DNA of 64,000 bases from an uncultured Candidatus Saccharibacteria bacterium (GTDB lineage Bacteria; Patescibacteriota; Minisyncoccia; Phycocordibacterales; UBA1006), in assembly GCA_964601935.1 (NCBI GenBank), contig CAZROP010000001.1:20127-84126 (forward strand), written 5' to 3'. A program made the translations under genes and the position numbers. The notes below the pieces were generated by a model. That model made no database searches and was not told the DNA's origin. It was given only the letters and a program-made list of their open reading frames with translations. Position 1 is the first letter of the stretch, and the number at the start of each line of letters is the position of its first letter. This document shows, piece after piece, positions 4,004 through 57,746 of the stretch.

Positions 4004-4004
4004 A

Positions 4005-7263: not shown

Positions 7264-7328
7264 ATCTGTGCCGTATTCGACAACGCAAAAAGTATACCAG
7301 ATTTTCCGAAATACGCTATACTAAAAAT

Positions 7329-8459: not shown

Positions 8460-8501
8460 CACATATCCTCCGTAAATATAAAAATGAAAAACACAAATAG
8501 A

Positions 8502-9014: not shown

Positions 9015-9048
9015 ATACTCCTTAGTGTACTCCTATTCCCCTATATAG

Positions 9049-9082
9049 CAAAACCGCCTCTGGCATAGAGACGGTTTTGCTA
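9049..9082. terminator. Intrinsic-terminator-like hairpin after rplE
   Basis: GCAAAACCGCCTCTGGCATAGAGACGGTTTTGC is a perfect 12-bp stem. It lies between the convergent end of rplE and the upstream side of the DUF2231 gene. Confidence 0.55.
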
Positions 9083-9100
9083 TAACCAAACAAATACTTG

Positions 9101-9637: not shown

Positions 9638-9640
9638 ATA

Positions 9641-9943: not shown

Positions 9944-9959
9944 ATAGATTATATTTGGA

Positions 9960-10337
9960 CTACAGGACTTCAGGTGCCAATGACGCAATCTTGTTATAGC
10001 CTCGCTCCGACACTTCACGAGGAATAGGACCGAATACACGGGTACCACGAGGGTCACCCTTTCCATCAATGAGAACGATTGCGTTTTCATCGAATCGGAT
10101 ATAGGACCCATCAGGACGACGGAAGCTCGCCTTTTGGCGAACTACTACGCCTTTGTGTACTGTTCCTTTTTTAACTTGCTTGTTAGGTTCTGCGGTTTTA
10201 ATTGCAACAATTACCACATCCCCAATGTATGCATAGCGGCGTTTCGATGCACCTGGTACTTTGAATACCTGTGCTGTCGATCCACCACTGTTGTCAGCGA
10301 TGACAACTTTTGATCCGGCTTGCAACATATTAGACAA
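9960..10337 (-). CDS. rplN: 50S ribosomal protein L14
   Basis: 'MLQAGSKVVIADNSGG...' is typical of L14 (~122 aa). Confidence 0.9.
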   Translation of the reverse strand: MSNMLQAGSKVVIADNSGGSTAQVFKVPGASKRRYAYIGDVVIVAIKTAEPNKQVKKGTVHKGVVVRQKASFRRPDGSYIRFDENAIVLIDGKGDPRGTRVFGPIPREVSERGYNKIASLAPEVL

Positions 10338-10584
10338 CTACGCGGAAGGCAACTGTTTTTGCTACAGGTGCACATTCCTCGATTACTACTTTGCTGCCGA
10401 CCTTTGGCATTTCGCCTGCAACATGGGCTTTGTATTTCTTTGATACAGTATAGAACTTTCCGTACTTTGGATGTTTAACGAAGCGGTCAACTTTGACCAC
10501 TACCGTACTCATCATTTTGTCCGAAACCACTACACCTTCAAAACGTTTTTTATTTATTACTTTATCCATATTATTTTGCACCAA
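10330..10584 (-). CDS. rpsQ: 30S ribosomal protein S17
   Basis: 84 aa with 'FEGVVVSDKMMSTVVVKVDRFVKHPKYGK', the typical S17 OB fold. Confidence 0.85.
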   Translation of the reverse strand: MVQNNMDKVINKKRFEGVVVSDKMMSTVVVKVDRFVKHPKYGKFYTVSKKYKAHVAGEMPKVGSKVVIEECAPVAKTVAFRVVV

Positions 10585-21400: not shown

Positions 21401-21979
21401 CCCTGCAGCGAGCGTGCCTGTACCGCTAGTGAAATCTGCCTGCCCTAAAACATTAACAGCGCTCTCGCCATTGGTAATAGATGTAACATCAAATACTAGT
21501 ATTCGGTTATTAGAGGTGTCAGCGACAAACAATCTATTATTACCACTATCATGTGCTATTCCCTGCGGACCCTTCAACATCGTTTGTGTAGTACCCTCTA
21601 CGCGCAAGTAAAAACCCTGTTGACCCAATACAAAATCTGGAGTTTTGTCTACAAGCTGATTCGAGACATTGAGATTGAATACCAGCACCCTATTATTACC
21701 TGAATCAATGACAAACAAACGATGATTGCTGGCATCTAAGGTGGCTTGAGCGGGCCCATTCAATCCGTACGGCGTCATATCACCAGCGCCACCATTCTCG
21801 CTACTGCTAGTATAGCTCACTTCACCCCCCTCACGATTGACATACTGGCCAATAGCATCTATAGCATTCGCGCCATTCACAATAGCAGCATATGAATACA
21901 GCGGTATAGCACTTAGCACGGCTAGTGCAACGAACCCAATATATCGATAGACAGTATTCATGGTAATAGGTGATTTCAT
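18428..21979 (-). CDS. Giant secreted NHL-repeat beta-propeller protein (1183 aa) with C-terminal tandem PG_binding_1-like domains
   Basis: Signal peptide. More than 15 NHL-type repeats ('NNRVLVFD', 'NHRLFVAD', 'ITNGESAINVLGQPDF'). The C-terminal ~250 aa is shared with the 2116-aa protein and carries two peptidoglycan-binding-like repeats (LRTLGYKTTITG...; DGVYGRSSKAYVRLLQ). Confidence 0.7.
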   Translation of the reverse strand: MKSPITMNTVYRYIGFVALAVLSAIPLYSYAAIVNGANAIDAIGQYVNREGGEVSYTSSSENGGAGDMTPYGLNGPAQATLDASNHRLFVIDSGNNRVLVFNLNVSNQLVDKTPDFVLGQQGFYLRVEGTTQTMLKGPQGIAHDSGNNRLFVADTSNNRILVFDVTSITNGESAVNVLGQADFTSGTGTLAAGRLNIPYRLAYDSVNARLYVADTGNNRAVIYNTTSIVNGQAAANVLGQANFTTSSALASQNRMFAPQGIGINTSGTRAYVADTANHRVLVFDTTVITDGENAINVLGQPDFVSASDNITQDGMNQPNAIAHDAANNRLYVAESGGSGVKVFNIATITNGEPAVNILGQPDFESGSGFADTGVTSSPEGVYYDSTNNRTYVSDTGSNRIMIFDTTAITDGEDAIDAVGQSTYNDGLEVDYYTQDSNDGTQINPYGLSQPAGLAIDYTNHRLFLADGSRILVFNLNSSNILVDKTPDYVLGQQNFWDTSSGGFYGFSYAAGLVYDSGQNRLFVADADKQRVLVWNVSTIENGDAPVNVLGQANFSNITSACSASRLNNPSYLSLDPTGNRLFVSDRSNRRIVVFDIAGITNGESAINVLGQPDFVTCTVGTTQSKMDEATGVTYDAIQRRLFVSDGGNARVLVFDVADITNGESAINVLGQPDFVTANANGGQAGFGGEPNGLSYDEVYSRLFVADYSAARVLVFDVADITNGESAINVLGQPNFLNYSTAVTQSSIVDPIDLMIDSQNKRLYVSDEPANRTMIFDISVPTILNVASGNSDGSYTNGGTINILIQFSESVTVTGTPQLTLETGATDAVANYISGSGTDTLTFNYTVGPSDTSSDLDYASVGALNLNGGNITTTAQTAPVRLLLPSPGVAGSLSANKALIVYTPAPSVSSGGGGPSTPSCPSTHILTPTGCIKTPTSTILPPAITTTPISTTTPTGKVDWKSIQSMLRTLGYKTTITGRQNTTTTKAITDLHKKNNIPVETNILSNPFMTKLIELYNAKKTKKPTTYASGGEVLPTCTSAYKVIDSQLTPTQRDLYATTPGVSILTGAGIDLRGFSNVFDTEPTLPLHSDMLCHIQKLPPAVLAQACAALPATTISSSSSKTSITNLQRFIAYVLRGEVVIDGVYGRSSKAYVRLLQKRFNMAETGAYTPTLSAKIKVMVGCPK

Positions 21980-36923: not shown

Positions 36924-39900
36924 TTATTTGGGGCATTCAGCCAGTGTTTTGAGCTTTGCACCCAACACCGCGGTATATACTCCCGTTTCTGTAAGTCCTA
37001 ATCGGTTTTGTAGCAATCTGATATATGCTTTAGATGACCTCCCATACACTCCGTCTACTACTATTTCTCCTTTCATTACGTACGCTATGAATCTCTGTAA
37101 TGAGGCTACAGATGACTTAGGACTGAGTGAAGATATAGTTGTTAGTGGAAGAGCTGAACAAGCAGTCTCTAATACAACGTCAGGGATACCTGACACATGA
37201 CATTGAATATCACTGTGTAATGGAAGTACGGGGTATGTATCGAACGCACGAGAGAACCCACGCAAATCGATCCCCTTCCCAGTCAAAATGGTAACATTCG
37301 GTAAACTACCATACACAGCTTTCTGGTCAACAGATAACTGTGAATCTATAACCTTGTAGGCAGAGGTACAAGTAGGCAATACTTCTCCTCCTGATGCATA
37401 GGTTGTAGGCTTCTTAGTCTTCTTTGCATTATAGAGCTCTATCAGTTTTGTCATGAATGGATTACTGAGGATATTTGTTTCTACAGGTATATTGTTCTTC
37501 TTATGGAGATCAGTGATTGCTTTGGTTGTTGTTGTGTTTTGTCTTCCTGTGATAGTTGTTTTGTAACCTAGAGTACGAAGCATGGATTGGATGGATTTCC
37601 AGTCTACTTTTCCGGTGGGGGTGGTGGTTGAGATGGGTTGCGTTGAAGAAAGAGTAGGTGTTGGTATATCTGCAGCTTTAGTGACAATCGGAACAGGGAT
37701 GATTGGTATTACTCCACCGCCCCCACCAGAAGAAGACTGTGGTGGAGTAACTATTAGGGGAGAAAACCATCCCGTGGTATTTCCTACGTTAGTGCTGTTG
37801 GCAGGATCTACAGGAGTGGAAAAGACTGATGAATTGTCAGTAATGACACTATCCTTGATCGATAGAAATCCCGAACTTACAAAGGTAGAACTACCAGCCA
37901 TATCTATGGTTGCAGCAGTGTCCGGCATAGAAGAAACTATTGAGAGCCTATCGTTTGCATCTAGACCATTTAGAGTGAGCACTCCTGCTACAGTCTGGGT
38001 ACCACCTGTTGGTAATGTAATGACAGCAGGAGTAGAATTGTTAGAACTATCAGAAAAAGTAAGGTTGTTCCAGGTAGTGGCACCAGTGAGAGCGTGGTCG
38101 TCGCCCGAACTGAATACTACAGTACCGTTGTTATGGTTAAAGGTTCCTGTGTTGGTGAAGGTGCCAGCTATATTAAGAGTGTCTGAAGGGGCGGTGAACG
38201 TTCCTTGGTTAACCATACTACCTGTACCACCACCTGTATTCAGAGTAATTGTCTCTCCCGACGTAAACATAGATCCTGAAGGAATAAAAAATGTACCCGC
38301 CGTTATAAAGACAACTTCGTGAGGTAGAGTGCCCATGAGGCTACTTATGGGTATACTGGGGTCACCACTTTTTGCAAGCACCAGATCTGCGTTGGTCATT
38401 GCTCCATCAGAAATACGTAAAATCTTATCCAGCGCCAGGTGTCCTTCATGGTCGACAAAATCACCACCTACTAACACCTTTCCGCCAGGCTGCACTGCAA
38501 ATGAATACACACTTGCACTAAGCGCTGATGGAATGAACGTAGTATCTCGTGTTCCGTCCGTGTTCAGACGAGTTATTTTATCTAGATTAGATTGACCATT
38601 ATAGTCATTAAAATTTCCACCTACCAGAATCTTTCCATCTGGCTGCAGAGCTAATGTATACACACCTGCCCCAAACCCTGCTGGAACCATGAAACTTGTA
38701 TCTCGTGTTCCGTCCGTGTTCAGACGAGCGATTCTATCCAAATTAGGCTGAGCATCATAATTTTGGAACTCTCCTCCTACAAGTATCTTTCCATCTGGCT
38801 GTATCACAATATTATATACATAATCACTGAGAGCTACCGACGGAACGAATGTTGTATCTCGTGTTCCATCAGCGTTGATACGAGCCAAATAAGCAAGCTC
38901 TGGCAGAGCATCGTAACTCTCGAAGAATCCTCCTACAAGTATCTTTCCATCTGGCTGGATCGCCGCGCTCTGCACGATCTGGCCAAATGCCACCGCAGGA
39001 GCGAACGTTGTATCTCGCGTTCCATCAGTATTCAGACGAGCAATTCCGTCCAGATTGGGCTCCGAATCATAATCTGTAAAACTACCTGCAATTACAATAC
39101 GCTCATCAGCATCTAGATTAATAGAGGATACAGAACCCGTCGAAGCACCGACCGGGATAAAACTAGTGTCACGACTACCGTTCGTATTCAGACGAGCAAT
39201 CCTATCCAGGTTAGCCTGCGCACCATAATCAGTAAAACCACCACCGACCAAAATCTTTCCATCTGACTGTAAAGCCAATGAATTTATACTTGCGTTAAAC
39301 GCGGCAAAAATAGAGAAGCCTGTATCTCGTGTTCCGTCAGCATTAAGACGAGCAATATAGTCCAGATTAGCTTGACCATCGTAGTCGGTGAAATTTCCAC
39401 CTATAACTATCTTCCCATCAGGCTGAACAACTATTGCATTAACAGTATTATTCAATGATGCGGCTGGAGAAAATGCAGGATCGTTAATTCCACCCCTATC
39501 CAATCCCCACACCGTCACCCTATCAGCATAAATATCCAACCCCGTGAGACTGATACCATCTTTTCTAGCCACAGCCACCCCTGCCTCGTCCTCAATATAC
39601 AGAGTAATGATATCGCCATCGTAAAGCTGTACTCCGCTAAATGAATACGCGCCACCACTAGTTACAGCTGTATTTATAGATACACCATTAACAAACAGTT
39701 GCACCGTAATATTATCCGCCACAGGGGTTATGCCATCATTAGCATATACATTTCCCGATATAGTATACCTAGGAGGAAATGCCATATCCAAAACAGAGAT
39801 AAAAGCATCTGTGCCTCCTGCTAATTCTGCCTGATATACTCCTGCAGTCGTAGGAAACGCCGTACCTGTTTGCCCTGTTAGGTATATATTATTGGTAGAA

Positions 39901-42900
39901 TCGAGAGTTATAGCGTAACCAATATCATTATTGGCTGATCCACCCAGGTATGTACTTGCGATCAAGTTTGTAAGATTACTAGGAAATTGTGATATGAAAG
40001 CATCTTGTGTACCACCAATAACAGTATCATATGCTCCAATCGTTGTAGGAAATCCTGTTCCCCCTACTAACCCTGTTACGTATACGTTATTGGTAGAATC
40101 GATATCTATACTATAGCCACTATCTATATTACCTGTGCCACCGAGGAGTGTGCTGGCGGTAAGACTGGCGAGTGTGCTTGGTAGCTTTGAAATAAAGATA
40201 TCTGCTGCACCGCTCAAACTCGTGTCATAAGCACCAACCGTTGTTGGGAACGCTGTTGCTGCTAAACCTGTGACATAAACATTGTTGCTGGAATCCAGGG
40301 CTATGTCGTAGCCAGTATCATTACCTGTACCACCGAGGAGTGTGCTGGCGGTAAGACTGGCGAGTGTGCTTGGTAGCTTTGAAATAAAAGCGTCGCGCGA
40401 TCCACCGATAACAGTATCATATGCTCCAATTGTTACCGGAAAAGTAGATTCTGCCTGACCTGTCACATAAACATTGTTGCTGGAATCCAGGGTTAGGTTA
40501 TACGCGATGTCTGTATTCGTCCCACCGAGAAATGTACTCGCGGTGAGGGTTGCAAGACTACTAGGAAGTATCGATATAAAAGCATCGCTGCCACCTCCCA
40601 CAGTTGTATCATAAGCACCACCCGTTGTCGGGAACGCTGGCCCAGCACCACCTGCCACATAAACATTGTTGCTGGAATCCAGGGCTATACCGTAACCAGT
40701 ATCAATGCCCGTTCCGCCCAGAAAGGTACTAGCTGTCAGGCTAGTTAGCGTGCTCGGAAGTACTGACACAAAAGCATCAGTAGAGGCACCCCCACTAAGC
40801 GCAGTCTGATATGCTCCGACTGTTGTAGGAAAACCTGTTGCTGCAGAGCCTGTGACATAAACATTGTTGCTGGAATCCAGAACTATATCATATCCAATAT
40901 CAGAACCTGCCCCTCCCAAGTAAGTCGCAGCTGCAAGCGTCGTAAGTCCGTTATTGAATTTATAAATCACTACATCCTCAGCACCACCATATGTAGTATC
41001 ATAAGTTCCTGCGCCAGCTGGCGAGTGACTCCTGGATTGACCAACCATATAAATATTACCAGATGTATCGACTGTAATACCGCGACCTATATCATTACCC
41101 GTTGAACCAATTTGATCGCCTCCATACAATGTGCTGGCGGTCAACGCCGTGAGATTGCTGGACAACTTGGAAATAAAAACATCTTGTGATGCGCCTAGCG
41201 TAGTGTCATAAGCACCACCTGTTGTCGGGAACGCTGTTGCAGCTGTACCAGTTATATACACATTATTAGTGGCATCCAATGCTATATCATTCCCAGCTTC
41301 AGTGCTGGTACCACCTAAAACTGTACTCGCAGTCAATGTAGCGAGAGTACTGGGAAATACGGAGACAAAGGCATCCGTACCGCTCACAGTTGTATCATAA
41401 GCACCACCTGTTGTCGGGAACGCTGTTGCAGCATCGCCTACGACGTACACATTGTTACTAGCGTCTAATATAATTCCTCGCCCTATATCAGTACTACTTC
41501 CACCTAGAAATGTACTCGCGGTGAGGGTTGCAAGATTGCTGGGAAGTATCGATATAAATGCATCAGTACCACTAATAGTGGTATCATATGCGCCCACTGT
41601 TGTAGGAAAACCTGTTGCTGCTTGACCTGTAATATATACATTACTACTGGAATCTACTGCAATATCATTACCTGCATCTGCACCAGATCCGCCAAGATAT
41701 GTGCTAGCATTCAGAGTAGTGAGATCGGCAGGTAACGCAGCAACAAATGCATCCAATGAACTACCTCCATACGAAATATCATACGCCCCGACAGTCGTTG
41801 GAAAACTCCCCGACGTACTACCTGTCAGATACAGCATATTTCCTGTACCCCACACCATACTTACTGCCCTATCGTTGCCCGATCCGCCCAGATATGTGCT
41901 AGCATTCAGAGTAGTGAGATCTGGAGAAAATACGGTTATAAAAGCATCTGTGGTCGAACCCCCATGTGTTATCTGGTAACTTCCAGCTGTTACAGGAAAC
42001 CCCGATGCCGCCTCTCCTGCTATATAAATCGCATTATCAGCACCCACCAGTATGCTGGTACTTCCTTCATTACTCGCGGCACCACCTAGAAATGTGCTAG
42101 CAGTTAAGGTAGACAAATCATTAGTGAGTTTCGAAACGAATACATCAACAGTACCACCACCAAAAGTAGGCTGATAGACACCTGCTGTGGTTGGAAATCC
42201 ACTTGCAGCAGTCCCGACTATATAGACATTGCCTGAACTATCCAGTGCAATATCATTGCCTGTATCTGCACCAGACCCTCCTAAAAATGTTTGCCCCTGC
42301 AAGGTCGTCATTGCATCATCGAACTTTAGCACTAGAATATCACCCAAACCATTCGGTGTCGTATCATAGCCTAGACCTGTTATGGTTGGATCGCCTGTTC
42401 TACCTATTATAAAGACAGAATTATTATGCCATACAATACCGTTGCCTGTTTCGAGCTCTGTATACGACTCACCCCCTACATACGTACTCGCCAACAACGG
42501 ATCAATATATAACATATGTGTTGTATCATATTCTCCAACATCGAATCCGTAGGAGTCATTGTTTTGATAAAGTGTGTACTCTACATCTACGGATACTTTT
42601 TCTCCATTGATGTATTGAAAAGCAACAGGTGCGGTCATACGAACACCTCCTGCCCGGGTATTAATTATCAGTTCTCCTGTATCTTCATCGATAGAGAGGT
42701 CTTCTATACCTTCTATTGCAACCTGAATAGTGTCTGGTGATGACTGCGGTGATACGTTGAATATCTTTTCTATATTCTTTTGATAGGCGCGCAGAGTTAC
42801 ACCTATGCCTGGCCATACTAGTGTAAACTCTAAATCTTTATGAGTGTTCAGGTCAGTTTCCCATTTACTAGAATCATCGCCTATGAATCGTGATACTGTT

Positions 42901-43274
42901 GTTTCTGATTTCTGTGCTGGAACCAGATTATTAGTACTACCTCCAACAAACTGTTCGCGAAATGTAGTATCAGGCAACGCATAGGTAATACCCTCTGATC
43001 CAGCATATACTGTTCCAGCACTAGTAACCGCGTAGTACGGATATTGTTGTGCCTCTCCTAGGTTGCCTGAGTTTTCTATCCAAGGCAACTGTACCCGTGC
43101 CATACTTGCCTGTTGATCTGAAGTGAGGGCGGTTTCTGAACTTTCTATATCGGGCACGAGTGCTGCAGTGTTCGCATAGGAAATATTGGGGAGCATGAGT
43201 GTACTGCAGAATATTATGAGAAGGGTGGATGTTGCTATTTTTTTAAAAGATTGAAGGGTTTTTTTTGTTGGCAT
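36924..43274 (-). CDS. Giant secreted surface protein (2116 aa): SBBP beta-propeller repeats plus delta-60 repeats plus C-terminal PG_binding_1-like anchoring module
   Basis: Signal peptide. About 18 'LGGSGxDxGxxIALDSSNNVYVTGxAxxxFPTTxGAYDTT' repeats of the SBBP / beta-propeller type. About 8 'DGKILVGGNFTDYDGQANLDxIARLNxDGTRDTxF' repeats of the delta-60 type. C-terminal 250 aa homologous to the end of the NHL protein. Confidence 0.7.
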   Translation of the reverse strand: MPTKKTLQSFKKIATSTLLIIFCSTLMLPNISYANTAALVPDIESSETALTSDQQASMARVQLPWIENSGNLGEAQQYPYYAVTSAGTVYAGSEGITYALPDTTFREQFVGGSTNNLVPAQKSETTVSRFIGDDSSKWETDLNTHKDLEFTLVWPGIGVTLRAYQKNIEKIFNVSPQSSPDTIQVAIEGIEDLSIDEDTGELIINTRAGGVRMTAPVAFQYINGEKVSVDVEYTLYQNNDSYGFDVGEYDTTHMLYIDPLLASTYVGGESYTELETGNGIVWHNNSVFIIGRTGDPTITGLGYDTTPNGLGDILVLKFDDAMTTLQGQTFLGGSGADTGNDIALDSSGNVYIVGTAASGFPTTAGVYQPTFGGGTVDVFVSKLTNDLSTLTASTFLGGAASNEGSTSILVGADNAIYIAGEAASGFPVTAGSYQITHGGSTTDAFITVFSPDLTTLNASTYLGGSGNDRAVSMVWGTGNMLYLTGSTSGSFPTTVGAYDISYGGSSLDAFVAALPADLTTLNASTYLGGSGADAGNDIAVDSSSNVYITGQAATGFPTTVGAYDTTISGTDAFISILPSNLATLTASTFLGGSSTDIGRGIILDASNNVYVVGDAATAFPTTGGAYDTTVSGTDAFVSVFPSTLATLTASTVLGGTSTEAGNDIALDATNNVYITGTAATAFPTTGGAYDTTLGASQDVFISKLSSNLTALTASTLYGGDQIGSTGNDIGRGITVDTSGNIYMVGQSRSHSPAGAGTYDTTYGGAEDVVIYKFNNGLTTLAAATYLGGAGSDIGYDIVLDSSNNVYVTGSAATGFPTTVGAYQTALSGGASTDAFVSVLPSTLTSLTASTFLGGTGIDTGYGIALDSSNNVYVAGGAGPAFPTTGGAYDTTVGGGSDAFISILPSSLATLTASTFLGGTNTDIAYNLTLDSSNNVYVTGQAESTFPVTIGAYDTVIGGSRDAFISKLPSTLASLTASTLLGGTGNDTGYDIALDSSNNVYVTGLAATAFPTTVGAYDTSLSGAADIFISKLPSTLASLTASTLLGGTGNIDSGYSIDIDSTNNVYVTGLVGGTGFPTTIGAYDTVIGGTQDAFISQFPSNLTNLIASTYLGGSANNDIGYAITLDSTNNIYLTGQTGTAFPTTAGVYQAELAGGTDAFISVLDMAFPPRYTISGNVYANDGITPVADNITVQLFVNGVSINTAVTSGGAYSFSGVQLYDGDIITLYIEDEAGVAVARKDGISLTGLDIYADRVTVWGLDRGGINDPAFSPAASLNNTVNAIVVQPDGKIVIGGNFTDYDGQANLDYIARLNADGTRDTGFSIFAAFNASINSLALQSDGKILVGGGFTDYGAQANLDRIARLNTNGSRDTSFIPVGASTGSVSSINLDADERIVIAGSFTDYDSEPNLDGIARLNTDGTRDTTFAPAVAFGQIVQSAAIQPDGKILVGGFFESYDALPELAYLARINADGTRDTTFVPSVALSDYVYNIVIQPDGKILVGGEFQNYDAQPNLDRIARLNTDGTRDTSFMVPAGFGAGVYTLALQPDGKILVGGNFNDYNGQSNLDKITRLNTDGTRDTTFIPSALSASVYSFAVQPGGKVLVGGDFVDHEGHLALDKILRISDGAMTNADLVLAKSGDPSIPISSLMGTLPHEVVFITAGTFFIPSGSMFTSGETITLNTGGGTGSMVNQGTFTAPSDTLNIAGTFTNTGTFNHNNGTVVFSSGDDHALTGATTWNNLTFSDSSNNSTPAVITLPTGGTQTVAGVLTLNGLDANDRLSIVSSMPDTAATIDMAGSSTFVSSGFLSIKDSVITDNSSVFSTPVDPANSTNVGNTTGWFSPLIVTPPQSSSGGGGGVIPIIPVPIVTKAADIPTPTLSSTQPISTTTPTGKVDWKSIQSMLRTLGYKTTITGRQNTTTTKAITDLHKKNNIPVETNILSNPFMTKLIELYNAKKTKKPTTYASGGEVLPTCTSAYKVIDSQLSVDQKAVYGSLPNVTILTGKGIDLRGFSRAFDTYPVLPLHSDIQCHVSGIPDVVLETACSALPLTTISSLSPKSSVASLQRFIAYVMKGEIVVDGVYGRSSKAYIRLLQNRLGLTETGVYTAVLGAKLKTLAECPK

Positions 43275-49227: not shown

Positions 49228-50196
49228 TTACCGCCCCAGCGTTTCTCCTATAACGCGTGCTAATTTCTGTAAAGACTCGTCATCGAACACACTCACGGGA
49301 TATACCGGCACTCCGATTGCCTGCGACAGGTGTGCCACTATTTCATCTGCATTTTGAACTTCATCTGACTGCGATAATACTACGATCTCTTGTTTTTCTA
49401 TCAGACTGGTATCGAACTTTTCAAGTTCTTTGCGAATAGCACGATAAGATTCTACAGGATCAGGATTGATTGCAGCGACCAGATGCACTAATACTCGTGT
49501 ACGCTTGATATGACGTAGGAACTTTATACCCAACCCCTTTCCTTCGCTCGCCCCTTCGATCAATCCTGGAATATCAGCAATAATAGCTCCACTGGGCAAT
49601 ACGCCTAAATGTGGCTCTAGGGTAGTAAAATGATACGCGGCTACTTTTGACTTTGCATTTGTGAACGCATTCAACAGTGATGATTTACCTGCACTCGGCA
49701 AACCAATCAGACCAATATCCGCAACCATGCGCAGCTCTATATCAAATGTACCCGACTCGCCTTCGGCGCCAGGAGTACATTCTATAGGGCTCGTATTGCG
49801 AGAAGATTTGAACCATTCATTACCCAGCCCGCCACGACCACCGGCTAATAATTGTTCCTTCTGACCAATCTGGGTCAACTCCCATTCGAAACCGCTCTCG
49901 CGCTGACGTATTACCGTACCCACTGGAAACTTCAAAACCAGATCATCGCCTGACGCACCCTGCTTCCCGAAGTTTTCTCCATCACCGCCACGAGCAGCAG
50001 AAAAGGAATTTTTGAACTGATAATTCGATAAATATCCCAGATCTGAAACCGCCTCTACCCATACATCGCCACCCTTGCCACCGTTACCACCACCAGGACC
50101 TGAAAGAGGTTTGAACTTTTCTGTTCTCCAGCGCACAACACCATCGCCACCGCGACCTGCCTGTATTTGTAAAGTGAGTTCATCAACGAATGCCAT
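49228..50196 (-). CDS. obg: GTPase Obg/CgtA
   Basis: Gly-rich Obg fold ('GGDGVVRW...GGGNGGKGG') then G domain ('GLPSAGKSSLL', 'DIPGLIEGA'). Start set at MAFVDE; the listed longer ORF overlaps a tRNA. Confidence 0.85.
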   Translation of the reverse strand: MAFVDELTLQIQAGRGGDGVVRWRTEKFKPLSGPGGGNGGKGGDVWVEAVSDLGYLSNYQFKNSFSAARGGDGENFGKQGASGDDLVLKFPVGTVIRQRESGFEWELTQIGQKEQLLAGGRGGLGNEWFKSSRNTSPIECTPGAEGESGTFDIELRMVADIGLIGLPSAGKSSLLNAFTNAKSKVAAYHFTTLEPHLGVLPSGAIIADIPGLIEGASEGKGLGIKFLRHIKRTRVLVHLVAAINPDPVESYRAIRKELEKFDTSLIEKQEIVVLSQSDEVQNADEIVAHLSQAIGVPVYPVSVFDDESLQKLARVIGETLGR

Positions 50197-50373
50197 ATGA
50201 TTTTTTTTGATTATATTATTTGAGGATTCGGTCACAAAACATGCGTTCTCAGTACTCGTGCTCTGCACTCGTATTCGAACACTGTTTCGCGACCCCTGTT
50301 CGAATCCTCGTGGGTCGCGTAGCAATACAATCAAAATGCTTCTGAGGTCGCATGTTTGATTGTTTGCTAATTG

Positions 50374-50444
50374 CGGGCCCACGAGGATTCGAACCTCGGT
50401 CAACGGTTTTGGAGACCGCTATTCTACCACTGAACTATAAGCCC
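50374..50444 (-). tRNA. tRNA-Trp (anticodon CCA)
   Basis: Reverse complement GGGCTTATAGTTCAGTGGTAGAAT...CTCCAAA...GGTTCGAATCCTCGTGGGCCCG; cloverleaf with anticodon loop CTCCAAA. Confidence 0.8.
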
Positions 50445-50853: not shown

Positions 50854-51591
50854 ATGAAGAAGTTAATAATCATTCTGCTGCTAGCGCATAGCTGCATCGC
50901 CTCGGCGCAACAGGACACCTTGACGGTTATATCCTGGAATATTGGGATGTTGTTTCCCAAAAAATACAATGATGATGTGACCACAAAGTACTACCGTGGA
51001 GGATTCACAGATATCGCCTTGCCTGGTGAAGTCTACGTTCTAACTGAGGTATACCCGGGGAACGAGAGCGTACACAATGACAGGTGTTACTGTTACGAAA
51101 GGCACACCCATATGCTTACGAGTCTCAACTGTGTAACATGGGGTTCAAACTTTCAAACCCCGGTTGTCGTGCTCGATACTAGCGTAATAAACCACCGAAT
51201 CCAGGCACTGGACTTCGGTACATTTATTATCGTACCAGCACATTTACACACCTACTTGGGGAAGCGACGATTTGCCGTAATGAAAGCTATCGTGGAGTGG
51301 GCACAGACAGTAAACAAACCGGTAATCATCGCGGGTGATTACAATACCCGGGGGACCCACTGGAAAGGCAAGTTAATTGTAAACAACTGGGATAAAAAAC
51401 TATTCCAGTTGTTGCGCGATGCCGGCTTCATGGATGCCGGGTTTGAACAAAACACGTACCGATTCGCACCCGCGCGAATCGACTGGATCTTTGCAAGAGG
51501 AATGAATGAGTATTCTGCAATAAAAACGAAAGGTGTCTCTCCTTTCGACCATATCCCAATTATGACAAAGCTCATACTCAAAACTGAATAG
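50854..51591 (+). CDS. Secreted endonuclease/exonuclease/phosphatase (EEP) family protein
   Basis: Signal peptide; 'ITWNIG' start; the C-terminal 'SPFDHIPIMTKL' catalytic His/Asp motif is typical of the EEP fold. Confidence 0.6.
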   Translation: MKKLIIILLLAHSCIASAQQDTLTVISWNIGMLFPKKYNDDVTTKYYRGGFTDIALPGEVYVLTEVYPGNESVHNDRCYCYERHTHMLTSLNCVTWGSNFQTPVVVLDTSVINHRIQALDFGTFIIVPAHLHTYLGKRRFAVMKAIVEWAQTVNKPVIIAGDYNTRGTHWKGKLIVNNWDKKLFQLLRDAGFMDAGFEQNTYRFAPARIDWIFARGMNEYSAIKTKGVSPFDHIPIMTKLILKTE

Positions 51592-51837: not shown

Positions 51838-51910
51838 GGGCCCTTAGCTCACTTGGTAGAGCGCCGGTTTTGCACTCCGGAGGCAAGCAGTTCGAATCTG
51901 CTAGGGTCCA
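51838..51910 (+). tRNA. tRNA-Ala (anticodon TGC)
   Basis: GGGCCCTTAGCTCACTTGGTAGAGC...TTTTGCAC...GTTCGAATC...GGGTCCA with the G3:U70 Ala identity pair. A TATAAT-like box lies ~12 bp upstream. Confidence 0.85.
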
Positions 51911-52174
51911 CAGTAATAAATAAAAACAGGCGAGTATGCCTCTTTTACTAAAAAACAAGCTATCTATTGATTCATGTTTTCTGGTATACTAGCTGAGTAC
52001 CTAGTTACAGCAGGCTAAGGCTTTGTGTCTTTCCTGATCGAGTGTAGAAACAGCATCATCAGTGGGCACGATTAGGGTCTTCGGGTTTTCTGTAAGTGGG
52101 TACAACTGTCTATCTAGTGGTACCTTTTATTAGCATACCCCTAACTTATTCGTAATAAAGTAAATTAATTTTTT

Positions 52175-52879
52175 ATGAAAGAACTATTTAAAACATATAT
52201 TTTAATAATGACTCTATTCAGCATACTTGTTATGCCTTCAGGCGTACATGCTGTCACAAACGCAAGCTATGTAAAACTTCAAAAAGAAAATAAATTACTT
52301 AAAGCTCAACTCGCACAACTAAAAGAACAAACCCTATCTTGCAAGACAGATAAACTGGGCCAAACCAGCTCTACCACACCACTTAATGAGAAAAAGGTGC
52401 TAGTCAGCGTTAAGTGGGTGAACACTTTTAGCCCCGATATAGGTATAAATCAAACACCTGCTTTCGTTGCTTACAAAATTGAAAATACTTCTAATGTCGA
52501 CATTCCCATAGACAGTATTACTTTTAGCGTAGAAACAAAAGGACAAGAGTATTCTATAGGTTATCGCGAAACTCTATACTCTTTTTCTACAAAAGAGCGT
52601 AATAAAAATAATGCATTCTATCTTCCTGTTGACAATGTGACTAATCCTGTCACACACGAATTTGAAGAATCTATAATTATCCCAGCAAATAGTACTAAAG
52701 TACTTTACTTAAACATGTGGGGCTTTTCAGGAGGGCTTGCGGCTCTAAGATTCGGTGGCGCAGGAAGTACGGTTATTACATTGCACTCGCTCAAGTCCTT
52801 AAAACAAGGTACTGTATTTGACTTAGGAGCAGATGGAAAACTGATAGCCATTGACTACCACAAACAAGGATCGCTTTAG
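52175..52879 (+). CDS. Hypothetical secreted protein with an N-terminal coiled coil
   Basis: Signal peptide, 'LQKENKLLKAQLAQLKEQ' coiled coil, beta-rich C-terminal part; no family assigned. Confidence 0.35.
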   Translation: MKELFKTYILIMTLFSILVMPSGVHAVTNASYVKLQKENKLLKAQLAQLKEQTLSCKTDKLGQTSSTTPLNEKKVLVSVKWVNTFSPDIGINQTPAFVAYKIENTSNVDIPIDSITFSVETKGQEYSIGYRETLYSFSTKERNKNNAFYLPVDNVTNPVTHEFEESIIIPANSTKVLYLNMWGFSGGLAALRFGGAGSTVITLHSLKSLKQGTVFDLGADGKLIAIDYHKQGSL

Positions 52880-52961
52880 AAAAGCTTTTAACAAAAATGA
52901 TTTCAAAAAAACCGTTGTTGCAAATAATGCAACAACGGTTTTTGGTTGAGTAGATCTGTAC

Positions 52962-53357
52962 TTACAGCATCATCGAATGCAGCGCTATTCGATTACCTTC
53001 CGAATCTTCTATGCTCGCGATGTGTCCATTCTCGCCGATTTCTATACCTGACTTTAACACGTGTATACCCAGCTCCTTTGCACGCGCGAGTGCGCCACTA
53101 ATGCTCGCAACCGAGAAATATACCAACACCCCTTCCAATGACGGCTTCATATGCGGACCTTTGACCAACTGCCCTGCTGCGCCATACATAGTCATAGTAT
53201 CGGGACCCATCGGGAACCAACTGGTTTCTACTCCGTCTTTTTCGGGCTGACGGATACATTCAAAATCCAGGAATTCTTTATAAAATTTTTCTGCACGACC
53301 CATGTCCGTCACAGGAATATCGAACCATCCAATTGGGTTACCTTTTTCTTTTTCCAT
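52962..53357 (-). CDS. VOC-family (glyoxalase/bleomycin-resistance fold) protein
   Basis: 131 aa; 'IGWFDIPVTDMGRAEKFYKEFLDFE' is the typical VOC beta-alpha-beta-beta-beta N-terminus. Confidence 0.6.
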   Translation of the reverse strand: MEKEKGNPIGWFDIPVTDMGRAEKFYKEFLDFECIRQPEKDGVETSWFPMGPDTMTMYGAAGQLVKGPHMKPSLEGVLVYFSVASISGALARAKELGIHVLKSGIEIGENGHIASIEDSEGNRIALHSMML

Positions 53358-53475
53358 ATACTGCTTAGTGATTATCTAGTAGTAGGCTCAGTATAGCATT
53401 GCCGTTGACAAAATATTAACTCAAAAAAACAAACCCTGACAATAACCATTGTCAGGGGGTTTTAGTATGAATTTT

Positions 53476-54744
53476 TCATGTAATCACCTCGTTGCTAGGA
53501 GGAACGATATGGATTCCTCCACTTTTGATTATTGTACCCTCTGCAAGCAGATGTGCATTTACGAGCGTAGCCCCAACATGTGCGGGCCGGTGATCCCACT
53601 CACCTTTTTCATTTTTGTAACGAACAATACGTACATGCTGGCGGCGATAGTGGGGCTGCACCGTATACCCTCCGGCTCTTTTTACAACAATATGAGAAGA
53701 ATTTGCACGGAGGCGACCGATTTCAATCGTTTGACTAATGTCTACAACATGCCATGACTGTTGGTACCTTGGTGATAGTGCTACTTGGTGCAGCATTTCA
53801 GTACCTATTTCAACAAACGGACTATTCACATGCGCCTCAGCACAAATCCTACAGATTCTGTTAACGATCTCTACAACACCTACTAGAGTTTTTCCATCCT
53901 CCATTGTATAGATTGATGCTGTTAGCGGTTTGAAATCGCTACTGTATGCACGACCAATCCCTCCAGGTGAAATTGATGCAAACCCGCAAAAACCTTTACC
54001 CATAGAGTCGACAGTAGCCTGTAACTTCTGCGCCAGCTTCTGAAATAGCTTAACTTTTGAACTACGTACAGCTGCGGTGGCATCTCTGAAATCCTTTTCT
54101 TGTTCCGGTGACATAAGACAATGTTCCACCTCATCAGACCAAACCATAATATGAGTTTGGCCATTCTCCCCCGCTACCACTAAAATATTATTCATATCCC
54201 AACCCTCAGCAGGCATATTGTGAGACGTGGCGTGGCCGACATGTAGGCTATTGTCTATACGATATTCATTTTCGTAGCGGATGTATAAGGCTGGATACGG
54301 TAACGCATCCAGCCAGTACTCTGTGCGTAAGTCCAGCGGCTGAATGACCCCTGACTCTACAGTAATCGCTCTGCGTACTCCTCCCCATTTCTGTACCATG
54401 TATGGAATCATTAACTGGTTTGGCACGTTATAGGACCTAACGATATCGAACTGCGAAACCTTTCCTAAAAGATCTTTAGGAACACGCGGTAGAAACTGAT
54501 ATGGCGATTCCACAGACACAGCAGTAGGATCCTCTAACCACTTCCGCAAGTTCTGGTATTCTTTTATACTCCGTACCAAGCCCCAAGAGGGACCCAGTTC
54601 AGACCCAGCCCTTGGAGCTACTTTCCGAGCATCTGCTCCATGCTTTGATCCAGTGCGAAATATTTCGAACATCCCTCCCGCAACCAACTGGTAGTCTTCC
54701 CAATGGCGGAGCAAATTATCTAAGTGTGTCCCTAATAGTTTCAT
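53476..54744 (-). CDS. Orphan 422-aa soluble protein of unknown function
   Basis: Long ORF with no TM helix or signal peptide. No motif I can assign; a weak 'GENGQTHIMVW' primase-like sGxGxH resemblance was not accepted. Divergently paired with the HExxH gene. Confidence 0.4.
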   Translation of the reverse strand: MKLLGTHLDNLLRHWEDYQLVAGGMFEIFRTGSKHGADARKVAPRAGSELGPSWGLVRSIKEYQNLRKWLEDPTAVSVESPYQFLPRVPKDLLGKVSQFDIVRSYNVPNQLMIPYMVQKWGGVRRAITVESGVIQPLDLRTEYWLDALPYPALYIRYENEYRIDNSLHVGHATSHNMPAEGWDMNNILVVAGENGQTHIMVWSDEVEHCLMSPEQEKDFRDATAAVRSSKVKLFQKLAQKLQATVDSMGKGFCGFASISPGGIGRAYSSDFKPLTASIYTMEDGKTLVGVVEIVNRICRICAEAHVNSPFVEIGTEMLHQVALSPRYQQSWHVVDISQTIEIGRLRANSSHIVVKRAGGYTVQPHYRRQHVRIVRYKNEKGEWDHRPAHVGATLVNAHLLAEGTIIKSGGIHIVPPSNEVIT

Positions 54745-54769
54745 TCGTTTCAGTTTTAGATGAAGAAAT

Positions 54770-55318
54770 TTGAGGCTCTTTATACCACAAGTGGGTCATA
54801 AGGTCAATGACTTACTCACCGTAGAGACACCAGGATATATCTCACACAGGGCTAAACAGTGTATACTAGAATCTATGCAAGAGGAGTACTGCCTGATCAA
54901 ACGAATACCAACATTCTGGAATTACATTCCACTCTTGGGAACTGACATGGCTATGACTGCTTTTGGTGTTATATACTTTCCTCCTGACCAGTATGACGAT
55001 CTGCATTCTGACAATCCCAGCACTTGGATTCAATCTGTACTGATTCACGAAAAAGTGCACGCGCATCGACAGGCAAAAATGGGCGGCACGCAGTGGGGTC
55101 TGCGCTATATAGTATCCCGCAAGTTTCGACTGAATGAAGAACTGCTCGCGATCAGAGAACAGATGCTGTTTCTTAAAAAACATAATGGGTCTTATGATAT
55201 AGAACGTAAAGCGCGGCAGTTCGCTGGCGCTGCATACCTATGGGTTTTGCCCTACCAACAAGCAATCACGGTACTTAACAACCTATGGAATTCTTGCAAT
55301 ACACAAGAAGTCCGATAA
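54770..55318 (+). CDS. Putative HExxH zinc-metallopeptidase-like protein
   Basis: 'VLIHEKVHAHRQ' gives HExxHxH, possibly SprT/ImmA/MtfA-like. 182 aa. Only 25 bp from the divergent 422-aa gene. Confidence 0.35.
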   Translation: MRLFIPQVGHKVNDLLTVETPGYISHRAKQCILESMQEEYCLIKRIPTFWNYIPLLGTDMAMTAFGVIYFPPDQYDDLHSDNPSTWIQSVLIHEKVHAHRQAKMGGTQWGLRYIVSRKFRLNEELLAIREQMLFLKKHNGSYDIERKARQFAGAAYLWVLPYQQAITVLNNLWNSCNTQEVR

Positions 55319-55350: not shown

Positions 55351-56880
55351 GTGGTATGGTGCGTCTATATGATGACGCTGAAAAATATCGCATTCTGGTA
55401 TGACGAGGATCACCCACTGTTCGAAGAGGTGTCGTTCAAGATTATAAAGAATGACCGCTTGGTTATTGTAGGAGAAAATGGCGCAGGTAAATCCACTCTG
55501 CTACAGATTATTGCAGGACTGATCGAGCCCGAAGAAGGAAATGTACATACTGATCCAGGTGTTCGTATGCTGTACGTGTTCCAGGAATTTGATGGGCACA
55601 ACGAGCTCATCCGTGACTACATAATAAAGCGTACAAAAAATGTCGGCGCAGCCATGGCATGCGCTGCGCAATTCGGATTCGATGCGAACAAATATCCTGT
55701 AGACTCTACGTTCTGCAAAAACCTATCAGGAGGACAACAAAAGGCATTGCAATTGTCATGTGCATTCGTAGAAGAGCCATCAATACTGTTATTGGATGAG
55801 CCAGAAAACCACTTGGATATTATCGCCCGCAAGCATCTGATAGAAAAGATCCGATCATTCCCTGGTGCAGTCGTTCTGATTTCCCACGACCAGACGACGC
55901 TATCAACTGTAGTGAATCGCACCATAGAAATCATCGACCAGCAAATGTTCCTCACCAATGGTGGCTACGAGGAATATAAGATTGCTCGACAGCGACGTGT
56001 AGAAGCAGCCGTTAGAGATAAAAAGTCTATGGTCAAAAAAGCATCGGAAATGCAGGACGCACTCGTCATCATGCATCAAAAGGCATTCCGCGGAAAGTCC
56101 ACAGGCGACTACCGCGCCCGCAAGGCAGAACTCGCAGAACTAAAAGAAACTTTGAAAAATACCAAACCACCGAGCGGCGACCAGGCAAAAAAACTGGGCG
56201 GCAAAATAACAGCAGAAGACCGCAGCGAAGGCAGGTTCATTTGGGAGTCTGACGAATTACGTTATCGATATGACGGCAGTAATGCAGATGCGTTTCGTAG
56301 TGACGAGTTATCAATACGATTCGGAGATAGAATTGGATTGGTTGGACGTAATGGTGCTGGCAAATCAACCCTGGTGAATACCCTCACCAACAAACTAACA
56401 CCAACACATGGAACAGTACGATGGGCACCCGATATTAGTTACGAAATGTTCAATCAGCATATGCATTTGCCCGAAGACCAAAATACCGTACAGGTAGTAC
56501 GCGACGAACGCAACTGCAGCGAAGAAGAGGCATTCCGTATTCTGGGACAGGCAAAGCTATCGAATAAAATATTATCGAAATTAAAGGTTCGCGATCTATC
56601 TGGCGGACAGCGTATGCGATTACGATTTGCATTAGCATTTTCGCGACCGCTCGACCTGATCATTCTGGACGAACCGACGAATAATCTGGACGAATCAACA
56701 CTAGAGATTCTGAAAAACCTTATTAATGATTTCCCTGGTGCGGTACTGATCATTACCCATGATCGCGCATTCATGGAACAACTGGATCTGCACAAATTCT
56801 GGTATATTACTGGTAATACTGTACACGAAACCTATAAAGACTTATCAGATATTCTGAAAGAAATGGAAAAATCCCGCTAG
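55351..56880 (+). CDS. ABC-F family ATPase with two ABC domains and no TM domain
   Basis: Two Walker A motifs ('GENGAGKST', 'GRNGAGKST'), two signatures ('LSGGQQ', 'LSGGQRMR'), Walker B motifs, and a Lys/Arg-rich linker. Confidence 0.8.
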   Translation: MVWCVYMMTLKNIAFWYDEDHPLFEEVSFKIIKNDRLVIVGENGAGKSTLLQIIAGLIEPEEGNVHTDPGVRMLYVFQEFDGHNELIRDYIIKRTKNVGAAMACAAQFGFDANKYPVDSTFCKNLSGGQQKALQLSCAFVEEPSILLLDEPENHLDIIARKHLIEKIRSFPGAVVLISHDQTTLSTVVNRTIEIIDQQMFLTNGGYEEYKIARQRRVEAAVRDKKSMVKKASEMQDALVIMHQKAFRGKSTGDYRARKAELAELKETLKNTKPPSGDQAKKLGGKITAEDRSEGRFIWESDELRYRYDGSNADAFRSDELSIRFGDRIGLVGRNGAGKSTLVNTLTNKLTPTHGTVRWAPDISYEMFNQHMHLPEDQNTVQVVRDERNCSEEEAFRILGQAKLSNKILSKLKVRDLSGGQRMRLRFALAFSRPLDLIILDEPTNNLDESTLEILKNLINDFPGAVLIITHDRAFMEQLDLHKFWYITGNTVHETYKDLSDILKEMEKSR

Positions 56881-56908
56881 TGCGGGATTTTTTATAGTAG
56901 AAATCTCT

Positions 56909-57288
56909 CTACTGCCGACTTTCTCGACGCTCCTCAAAAATCGCATTCTTAAATTTACGCGAGGACGTTATACTCATAAAGTCTAGGATTTCTGACTCCA
57001 GCTTATTTTCTAACTCTTTATAATGAGGAGATGTTTCTCCCAATCTTGCCATTTCAGCTCTTATTTCTTCGGTCTTCTGTTTTAATTCCCGTAATTTCTG
57101 ATTGTATATTTCTATTTCTTCCTCTGAAGGTTTGCCATTACGCCGCTCGTGGAGGCGAGGTCTTTTTATTTTCTCAGGAAGAGTTGCTTTTTTATGCGTA
57201 GTATTATCCGGCGCAGCAGAGCCTCCATCTGTATTAATAGACCCCCAGCTATTCTGCATTCCTTCCAATCCTCCACCAAAGCTTGCCA
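56909..57288 (-). CDS. Hypothetical charged coiled-coil protein
   Basis: 126 aa from MASFGG; Lys/Glu-rich helical C-terminus. It overlaps the alternative plus-strand ORF 57102..57695; the minus-strand reading is retained up to 57288. Confidence 0.3.
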
Positions 57289-57339
57289 TATACCAGAAGT
57301 ATATCATTATTTTCCACAATGCGATATACTATAGTCATA

Positions 57340-57695
57340 TGGAAAAGCTCAACCTCATCAAAAACATTTATATCTACGCCTTATCAGGCATCACTCTCAT
57401 CATATTTTTAGTATCAATTACTAATATGCTGACAAAAATCCCAGACGTGCTCTACCCTACCACCTACACCCAGACATTCCCGGAATATAAACAAATGTTA
57501 CCGGCAAATGACACTCGTCCACCAGAACAGATCCGTGCAGAGCTCGACGAGCGCAATCAAAAGATGATAGAGCAGGAACAATTGAATCAGAAAAAACAAT
57601 TATTCAACAATGGAATCTGGGCATTGGTATCTGCAGTTGCTTTCGGGTATTTCCATCGCGAGCGAAAAGAAATCGACAAACAGAATAAGAAATAG
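57340..57695 (+). CDS. Hypothetical small membrane protein
   Basis: Start at MEKLNLIKN avoids the antisense overlap. One TM helix near each end. Confidence 0.3.
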
Positions 57696-57746
57696 AAAAA
57701 TCAAACTCTCCGAGACATACAATATATCTCGGAGAGTTTTTAAAAA

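Follow-up and report, generated by a model that had tools for sequence, protein, structure and literature searches.

A putative chromosomal AcrVA2/FinQ-type silencer gene and an unrelated HExxH-protein gene as divergent neighbours in an uncultured Candidatus Saccharibacteria bacterium

A 64,000-nucleotide stretch of DNA from an uncultured Candidatus Saccharibacteria bacterium (contig CAZROP010000001.1; hereafter the window) contains two adjacent genes, transcribed divergently, to which the initial annotation could assign no function. Do these genes form a functional unit, and what does each of them encode? The first (53476..54744, minus strand, ATG start) codes for a 422-amino-acid (aa) protein, P0001. 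The second, which codes for a protein with an HExxH motif, appears in a mechanical reading-frame search as a 182-aa ORF with a TTG start (54770..55318, plus strand). As the initial annotation described, the pair lies between a VOC/glyoxalase gene (52962..53357, minus strand) and an ABC-F ATPase gene (55369..56880, plus strand; two Pfam ABC_tran domains; relevant here as context only), and the ORF coordinates and the Pfam assignments of the flanks agree with this arrangement. Conserved homologues of each ORF elsewhere show that both are real genes; the N-terminus of P0001, for example, is conserved in the full ORF of a relative (contig L001, 203..1459). We report here that the two genes are unrelated neighbours, with no conserved link, and do not constitute a module. 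In the reading that we prefer and consider fairly probable, two unrelated transcription units abut by chance at a synteny breakpoint, and the first of them encodes a putative silencer of the AcrVA2/FinQ superfamily.

AcrVA2 (PDB 7CI1 and 7CI2; phrog_6160) is an anti-CRISPR protein of a Moraxella bovoculi prophage, with roughly 1,800 published orthologues and a peptide-binding pocket at E98/D129/D195. Through AcrVA2 and FinQ, phages and plasmids silence a single, specific gene by acting on its mRNA. AcrVA2 is, to our knowledge, unique among the prokaryotic proteins described in that it recognizes a polypeptide during its synthesis and destroys the corresponding mRNA. It binds Cas12a at the nascent N-terminal peptide, which leads to a translation-dependent loss of cas12a mRNA, while FinQ, a member of the same family, acts as a single gene and lowers the tra transcripts of the F plasmid (bioRxiv 10.1101/2022.11.29.518452). 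The mRNA-decay step of AcrVA2 itself is not understood (PMC13131331). Homologues of AcrVA2 mostly occur without Cas12a (bioRxiv 10.1101/2022.11.29.518452), and the AcrVA2 authors proposed that these numerous homologues act on other targets.

The initial annotation found no detectable family for P0001, and at the level of Pfam, NCBIfam, PADLOC and PHROG models this still holds. None of these models gave a usable match to P0001 or to the HExxH protein, and P0001 itself did not match phrog_6160 even at E <= 1. Likewise, no Pfam or NCBIfam model matched the family members tested, and NCBIfam and PADLOC searches with all 58 members yielded scattered chance matches only. Structure and profile-profile methods, on the other hand, did reveal relatives. 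The overall fold of the P0001 structure model matches that of AcrVA2 (7CI1), and AcrVA2 is also the sole PDB sequence match of the P0001-family profile, at its PHxRRGHW motif. Nine of the 58 family members match phrog_6160, with a best E of 4.3e-7. When the P0001 family was aligned by hhalign with a target alignment of AcrVA2, FinQ and four other homologues, E values of 1.7e-6 (local) and 3e-10 (global) were obtained, and four AcrVA2/P0001 correspondences fell in register, namely W79/W120, D89/E130, the 'LP' of LPDW/P149, and the H-R-H triads. The relationship is remote. P0001 is 7-12% identical to AcrVA2, and profile-to-sequence scores between the two families reach just 10-23 bits, with FinQ being the best scorer among AcrVA2 homologues against the P0001-family HMM (17.5 bits). 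As a positive comparison, a bona fide AcrVA2 homologue matches phrog_6160 at 1e-58 and 7CI1 at 1.5e-72. P0001 is not a housekeeping enzyme; it is best read as a very distant and deeply divergent AcrVA2/FinQ-superfamily protein, chromosomal and stand-alone, and this forms part of the best explanation of the locus. Since its only detectable kin, AcrVA2 and FinQ, are conflict proteins of mobile elements, the mobile or defence-associated flavour of the initial annotation is right for the 422-aa gene, although for a different reason from the metallopeptidase pairing on which it had been based.

The HYRRQH sequence of P0001 (H365-Y-R367-R-Q-H370; codons at 53635..53652, minus strand) was aligned to 'PHIRRGHW' of AcrVA2 by both hmmsearch and hhalign, and is the counterpart of AcrVA2 H286/R288/H291. 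The three columns are nearly invariant in the P0001 family, with H in 57/58, R in 57/58 and H in 55/57 members. In AcrVA2, the substitutions H286A, R288A and H291A abolish down-regulation of Cas12a mRNA while leaving binding intact (bioRxiv 10.1101/2022.11.29.518452). Co-immunoprecipitation of AcrVA2 H286A has been used to capture its target. W120 of P0001 (codon at 54385..54387, minus strand), a Trp in all 58 members, is the probable counterpart of AcrVA2 W79; hhalign placed it against the W of 'GAWRNTLGIYQLD', in that region in global or low-MAC alignments only. W79A impairs AcrVA2 (bioRxiv 10.1101/2022.11.29.518452). The column that pairs E130 with AcrVA2 D89 is acidic in just 26/58 members. 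At a number of near-invariant positions, P0001 itself deviates from the consensus of its clade (G296R, E361T, R396N, D398H and K399L), and its closest relative, P0002 of ERZ27258486, carries a Tyr at the H370 position. An N-terminal 'WED.N' helix was considered as an equivalent of 'AWHLLN' of AcrVA2 and was rejected, the likeness being one seen by eye, with an hhalign probability of 0.1%. The CRIC cysteine pair pointed out in the initial annotation is indeed present, at residues 298-301, but is not conserved (C298 is Cys in 35/58 members, while the C301 position is hydrophobic nearly throughout). Its candidacy as a metal-binding pair was dropped for want of a conserved second Cys among the 58 relatives.

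P0001 thus resembles AcrVA2 in the P-H-x-R-R-x-H motif of its C-terminal beta-domain and, according to the profile alignment, in an 'LP' strand and a 'C..AE' helix that are in register. It differs in being longer (422 versus 322 aa), in having an extra N-terminal helix (~residues 1-48) that lies outside the hhalign alignment and a helical insert at ~residues 213-248, and in its N-terminal and middle (target-binding) regions, which are not conserved with AcrVA2. FinQ, which can be aligned with AcrVA2 homologues, belongs to the same superfamily. However, FinQ is plasmid-borne (IncI-type, fertility inhibition), and its target, the F tra operon, is irrelevant for P0001. With an AcrVA2 homologue as the query, 585 plasmid records were matched, 553 of them conjugative and most annotated as finQ, whereas the P0001 clade has no plasmid match. 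By analogy with AcrVA2 and FinQ, P0001 would recognize one specific target and lower the mRNA of that target. Target binding would be the task of the variable N-terminal and middle domains, and destruction of the mRNA would be performed, or recruited, by the C-terminal H-x-R-x-x-H beta-domain. The best reading of P0001 is that of a stand-alone, chromosomal, divergent AcrVA2/FinQ-type protein, with the silencing of one target's mRNA as its predicted function. All characterized members of the superfamily have a mobile-element context, as opposed to the housekeeping chromosomal context of P0001, and this difference counts against the predicted role.

The P0001 gene is monocistronic. A terminator scan found an intrinsic terminator that begins 19 nt past the stop codon (53424..53457, minus strand) and consists of a 10-bp stem (CCCTGACAAT/ATTGTCAGGG) followed by TTTGTTTTTT; its predicted RNA fold has a free energy of -21.3 kcal/mol (z = -3.7), and 0/200 shuffled sequences were as stable. 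The P0001 clade is represented by lone genes, set among housekeeping genes, on the chromosomes of uncultivated bacteria. At seven loci of the family, the neighbours include ribosomal-protein, RF-1, GuaA, RuvX, MiaA and LeuRS genes, and none recurs except GuaA, in two loci. The context is one of housekeeping genes, and not of a mobile element, in the window and at loci L007, L015, L016 and L017. Searches of genome contigs (alignments A2 and A1) and of metagenome contigs (alignments A4 and A2) found no related locus.

The chromosomal setting raises the alternative that P0001 shares the ancestry and fold of AcrVA2 but is a domesticated host factor rather than a mobile element's anti-defence protein. 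Such a factor could serve in the regulation or quality control of a host mRNA or nascent chain, or could be a host-encoded anti-phage or anti-plasmid silencer that provides a FinQ-like exclusion. We regard this alternative as rather unlikely. It agrees with the chromosomal location of 7/7 family loci among housekeeping genes, with the GC content of the P0001 gene, which is indistinguishable from that of its surroundings, and with the lack of an integrase or an att-like direct repeat of tRNA-Ala or tRNA-Leu around the pair, of a CRISPR array or rRNA in the 64-kb window, and of cas genes among the large ORFs scanned. It also agrees with the lack of any clade member in the phage, plasmid and IMG/VR collections, where tblastn with P0001, P0006 and P0021 against phages and with P0001 against plasmids gave no match, and where alignments A2, A7 and A8 found no related locus on viral contigs; these searches were, however, of limited sensitivity. 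Moreover, housekeeping genes are closely packed in small genomes, and a chromosomal housekeeping context is therefore expected by chance. The sparse and patchy distribution of the family looks accessory rather than core, the P0001 gene is located at a synteny break (see below), and the family member at L017 lies in an apparent 7-kb insertion inside a ribosomal-protein operon, all of which argue against a host factor.

A more specific proposal is that the P0001 clade is a new chromosomal AcrVA2/FinQ-like clade of uncultivated, probably small-genome bacteria that would act as a host nascent-peptide silencer, either against phages and plasmids or as a regulator of host genes. This proposal is tentative, and we judge it rather unlikely. 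If it is true, translation-coupled mRNA destruction of the AcrVA2 type would be a general form of bacterial regulation, and not just a weapon of mobile elements. As for the preferred reading, in which P0001 is a distant AcrVA2/FinQ-superfamily protein, the clade extends the superfamily beyond mobile elements and offers new proteins for target finding and for dissection of the mechanism. A deeply divergent clade that is chromosomal and ~100 aa larger, and nonetheless keeps the H-x-R-x-x-H motif and the Trp, would mark the invariant core of the superfamily.

Homology to AcrVA2 could also mean that P0001 is a true anti-CRISPR or anti-defence protein, the remnant of a decayed mobile element and directed against a host Cas12a or another defence protein. 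The synteny breakpoint would suit such a relic, as would a tRNA-Ala gene (51838-51911) that borders a block of accessory-looking genes. However, the window has no prophage context, no CRISPR array and, among the large ORFs scanned, no cas gene, the pair lacks an integrase and att-like repeats, and the composition of the P0001 gene is native. Furthermore, AcrVA2 homologues are typically found without Cas12a (bioRxiv 10.1101/2022.11.29.518452), and it is the target-binding regions of AcrVA2 that P0001 does not conserve. An anti-defence relic therefore appears very unlikely.

The initial annotation took the two genes for a functional pair of an unknown protein and a metallopeptidase, and the neighbourhoods of their relatives do not bear this out. 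The family of the 422-aa protein was examined at seven independent loci, and none of them has a HExxH, VOC or ABC-F relative. The HExxH protein has relatives on two contigs, adjoining HtrA/FtsH in L002 and a membrane protein, YceI and VKOR in L003, and neither contig contains a relative of the 422-aa gene. L001, the one contig with a close relative of the 422-aa gene, has too short a flank to inform on pairing. No conserved pairing thus exists across the contigs and loci examined, which is the very finding that the initial annotation had set against its own proposal. HtrA/FtsH occupy in L002 the place that the 422-aa gene occupies here, and the pair is therefore at a synteny break; nucleotide similarity of the window to L002 starts at 54896 only. 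As for co-occurrence with the ABC-F gene, also raised by the initial annotation, the adjacency of the HExxH and ABC-F genes recurs in L002, where the ABC-F gene (MMTLKNIAFWYDEDHPLF...) begins 47 nt after the HExxH gene; the seven 422-aa-family loci have no ABC-F relative. In the window, the ABC-F gene follows the HExxH gene after 50 nt, in the same orientation. The terminator scan placed no terminator between the two and one after the ABC-F gene (56867-56892), and the two genes are probably co-transcribed.

The spacer between the divergent genes had been given as 25 bp, a value that hinges on the TTG start of the 182-aa ORF. In alignment A1, this ORF is conserved with P0004 and P0005 from about residue 42 onwards, and the first residue of P0004 corresponds to M36. 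The ATG at 54875 is therefore the likely start; it yields a protein of 147 aa (54875..55318, plus strand) and a spacer of ~130 bp (54745..54874), in which no sigma-70 consensus promoter was found. The public call for this gene, P0003, begins at M60 (123 aa) and is probably too short. A functional module of a toxin or regulator with an ImmA/SprT-type metallopeptidase under a shared divergent control region, for which one could cite the divergent adjacency of the genes, the rarity and lineage restriction of both, and the existence of such two-gene architectures in mobile elements, is largely refuted and very improbable, given the missing pairing, the HExxH-ABC-F pair that L002 keeps with HtrA upstream, the separate terminator of the 422-aa gene, the unmatched ImmA, SprT and MtfA profiles, and the wider spacer. 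With this spurious hypothesis removed, the main unexplained coding content of the window becomes a testable annotation.

The 'IHEKVHAH' signature noted earlier in the second protein was confirmed, with the HEKVH codons at 55046-55060 (plus strand). This protein is lineage-restricted, mostly helical and most likely ~147 aa long. Its assignment to SprT-, ImmA- or MtfA-type metallopeptidases finds no profile match in Pfam, NCBIfam or PADLOC, nor did its model, when searched with Foldseek as had been suggested, retrieve a significant PDB structure match; a putative metallopeptidase-like function is plausible but weak. The class considered was that of the DUF4157/VgrG2b-type gluzincins (MEROPS subclan MA(E)). 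The HExxH motif and a YDIERKARQF block are invariant in the three sequences on which this comparison is built. In the model, HEKVH lies in a helix (residues 50-69) preceded by a strand (32-34, 'VIYF'), and the invariant E110 of the YDIERKARQF block starts another helix (109-118), 48 residues after H62. The protein may thus be a small gluzincin-type zinc hydrolase, in which H58, E59 and H62 would lie on one helix and E110 would serve as the third ligand (147-aa numbering). The best PDB match of the family profile, at a level below significance, is the VgrG2b/DUF4157 gluzincin domain (6H56; 72 residues), and it covers the 'g.iYf' strand and the 'HE..H..Q' helix; PF13699 was not matched. The third ligand of VgrG2b, E983, is at the top of a helix, 44 residues past H939 (PMC6899460), a spacing comparable to the 48 residues in our model, within a match that is itself sub-threshold. 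Unlike VgrG2b, the HExxH protein has no T6SS, signal peptide or downstream immunity-like small ORF, and is followed instead by the ABC-F ATPase. E89 is an alternative candidate for the third zinc ligand.

Two open reading frames (ORFs), lying between a VOC/glyoxalase gene and an ABC-F ATPase gene just as the initial annotation placed them, are the main unexplained genes of the window, and were rightly singled out as such. The larger runs from an ATG start over 53476..54744 on the minus strand and encodes 422 amino acids (aa), while the smaller runs from a TTG start over 54770..55318 on the plus strand and encodes 182 aa, with its translated HEKVH codons at 55046-55060. Neither product had a significant match in Pfam, NCBIfam, PHROGs or PADLOC, or a phmmer match to PDB sequences, and word-indexed searches of 5.8 billion proteins returned only one relative of the 422-aa protein (47% identity, with the N-terminus also kept in the relative's full ORF) and only two of the HExxH protein (60% and 44% identity). 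Because such conserved relatives exist, both ORFs are genuine genes. An exhaustive HMMER search with a two-sequence profile then gave 58 representatives of the 422-aa family (328-467 aa), mostly aligned over their full length.

In the alignment of these 58 members, W120 and W331 are invariant, and the C-terminal region bears a near-invariant signature, G-x-E-K-x-P-H-x-R-R-G-H-x-R ... W ... V-R-x-D-K-L. The "CRIC" cysteine pair previously pointed out (residues 298-301) loses its significance here, as the second Cys is not conserved in the family. The sole PDB sequence match of the family profile was AcrVA2 (7CI1); it is weak (E 0.23), and falls exactly on the C-terminal motif (kspHlRrgHwR versus KRPHIRRGHWH). 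H286, R288 and H291 of AcrVA2 are conserved among orthologues, including FinQ, and are needed for down-regulation of Cas12a mRNA, not for binding (10.1101/2022.11.29.518452); H365, R367 and H370 of the 422-aa protein align to them when a one-residue offset in chain numbering is allowed. The AcrVA2 homologue of Shewanella phage vB_SbaS_Y11 (OQ927986; PMC10846135), used as a reference, matched 7CI1 at 1.5e-72 and phrog_6160 at 1.1e-58, and phrog_6160 therefore represents the AcrVA2 family. It was matched by 9 of the 58 members (best E 4.3e-7), the window protein itself not being among them.

Moreover, the family was compared by hhalign with an alignment of six sequences (AcrVA2, the phage homologue, FinQ, and plasmid homologues from Moraxella, Nitrosomonas and Acinetobacter). 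The two aligned over the C-terminal 66 columns at 89.9% probability (E 1.7e-6) and, in global mode, over 292 columns at 96.9% (E 3e-10). The global alignment pairs W120 with AcrVA2 W79, E130 with D89, P149 with the P of "LPDW", and the "C..AE" helix with "LWLCVAEPD"; the H-R-H triads coincide. Plain profile-to-sequence scores between the two families reached only 10-23 bits. Judged from sequence, the relationship is real, yet lies at the edge of detection, and we regard homology of the 422-aa protein to the AcrVA2/FinQ superfamily as highly probable.

Within that superfamily, the protein represents a variant that is new, divergent and chromosomal. Its clade is ~100 aa longer than AcrVA2/FinQ; relative to AcrVA2, the N-terminal helix (~residues 1-48) is left unaligned by hhalign, and a helical insert occupies ~residues 213-248. 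Together with its closest relative, which has Tyr at the H370 position, it forms a divergent branch without several clade-consensus residues. Every family locus with enough flank has ordinary chromosomal surroundings: MiaA, carotenoid genes, YchF and LeuRS at L007; L31, RF-1, L9, L27 and XseA at L015; GuaA and RuvX at L016; and, at L017, a ribosomal-protein operon, where the gene belongs to an apparent ~7-kb insertion separating L2 from S19. In the window, the surroundings are Obg, L33, tRNAs, UvrC and RseP, the GC content of the gene is native, and no integrase, att repeat or CRISPR, nor any cas gene among the ORFs scanned, was found. Within the sensitivity of those searches, clade members were absent from 50,697 phage records, 72,556 plasmid records and IMG/VR; in contrast, an AcrVA2 homologue as query matched 585 plasmid records, mostly annotated finQ.

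The interruption at L017 (within 2214-10494 of this metagenomic contig) holds genes for a 515-aa protein with a faint BrxR-WHD-like match, a 141-aa ORF, GuaA, a hexapeptide transferase, the AcrVA2-like gene (P0014), a 120-aa ORF and DAGK; in the operon, L15 directly follows S5, with no L30. In the window, an accessory-looking block between housekeeping genes comprises the VOC and AcrVA2-like genes and two genes for secreted proteins on either side of tRNA-Ala (51838-51911), one of the endonuclease/exonuclease/phosphatase (EEP) family (50854-51591) and one of 234 aa with no known function (52175-52879).

The two ORFs had been proposed to form a functional divergent pair across a 25-bp spacer. 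That spacer rests on the TTG at 54770, which is unsupported. Conservation of the HExxH protein begins near residue 42 of the 182-aa ORF, and in its relative P0004 the first residue corresponds to M36; the ATG at 54875 is therefore the likely start, which would give 147 aa and a spacer of ~130 bp. It also fits better than the public call (P0003, 123 aa, start M60), which looks too short, omitting, within window 54770-54946, ~20 residues conserved in both relatives, P0004 and P0005. At the P0004 locus, the same ABC-F gene (MMTLKNIAFWYDEDHPLF...) begins 47 nt downstream, and the genes upstream, in divergent orientation, encode an HtrA-type protease and FtsH, with no relative of the 422-aa gene present; nucleotide similarity to the window begins where the HExxH coding region starts, which makes the spacer a breakpoint of synteny. 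The neighbours of P0005 are a membrane protein, YceI and VKOR. Conversely, tblastn and all-against-all blastp found no HExxH, VOC or ABC-F relative in seven independent loci of the 422-aa family (L001, L005, L006, L007/L008, L015, L016 and L017). With the pairing absent from all these loci, the proposal fails the refutation test, lack of conserved pairing, that the initial annotation itself had set.

The only recurrent neighbour among the seven loci is GuaA (GMP synthase), beside or near the AcrVA2-like gene at L016:46-2911 and L017:5344-9170, loci that otherwise differ. The 422-aa gene is a stand-alone transcription unit, with a strong intrinsic terminator (10-bp stem and T-run, z = -3.7) 19 nt past its stop. 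A terminator scan found none between the HExxH and ABC-F genes, whose adjacency, present for the 60%-identical relative and absent for the 44%-identical one, may simply reflect recent common ancestry. The HExxH protein is an unrelated, lineage-restricted neighbour.

Its three known members share an invariant H-E-x-x-H-x-x-x-Q, an invariant YDIERKARQF block and an "IY(F/L)P" strand upstream of the motif; a transmembrane helix at the N-terminus occurs in P0005 only. The model from AF2 (pLDDT 77.7) is mostly helical. A SprT/ImmA/MtfA-type assignment, suggested earlier, found no support. The best PDB match of the family profile was the VgrG2b effector domain (6H56; E 0.38), over 72 residues that take in the strand and the HExxH helix. 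In VgrG2b, this C-terminal domain belongs to the thermolysin-like gluzincins of DUF4157 type, and its third ligand, E983, lies at the top of a helix 44 residues past H939 (PMC6899460). In the HExxH protein, the invariant E110 begins helix 109-118, 48 residues past H62. Weighing this likeness against the lack of any match in Pfam (DUF4157 included) or Foldseek, we consider a small, putative gluzincin-like hydrolase plausible, at slightly better than an even chance, and family membership tentative.

The 422-aa protein shares its fold with AcrVA2 and conserves H-x-R-x-x-H and the Trp. AcrVA2 recognizes a nascent peptide and causes translation-dependent mRNA loss by a biochemical step that is not understood (PMC13131331), and FinQ lowers F tra transcripts. 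By analogy, the variable N-terminal and middle domains of the 422-aa protein would bind one specific target, and the conserved C-terminal domain would bring about loss of that target's mRNA; such an AcrVA2-like mode of action is possible, if tentative. These findings widen a family of intriguing mechanism and define the residues that make up its invariant core.

Elsewhere in the window, three very large ORFs of 679, 1183 and 2116 aa (47-2086, 18428-21979 and 36924-43274) each have a PG_binding_1 domain at their end, besides NHL, beta-propeller or Ig-like repeats; the longest includes a 192-nt tandem repeat at 40128-40492. The mechanical Obg ORF (391 aa, 49228-50444) overlaps tRNA-Trp (50373-50444, minus strand), and the real start must be further downstream, near "MAFVDELTLQ". 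Between the ABC-F gene and UvrC, two small ORFs without family assignment, both listed among the public gene calls, encode a charged, coiled-coil-like protein of 136 aa (56909-57319, minus strand) and a membrane protein of 118 aa (57339-57695, plus strand). Near-perfect palindromic hairpins between convergent genes, at 52907-52943 and 57703-57739 (self-reverse-complement BLAST matches) and at 56867-56892 (from the terminator scan), look like bidirectional terminators.
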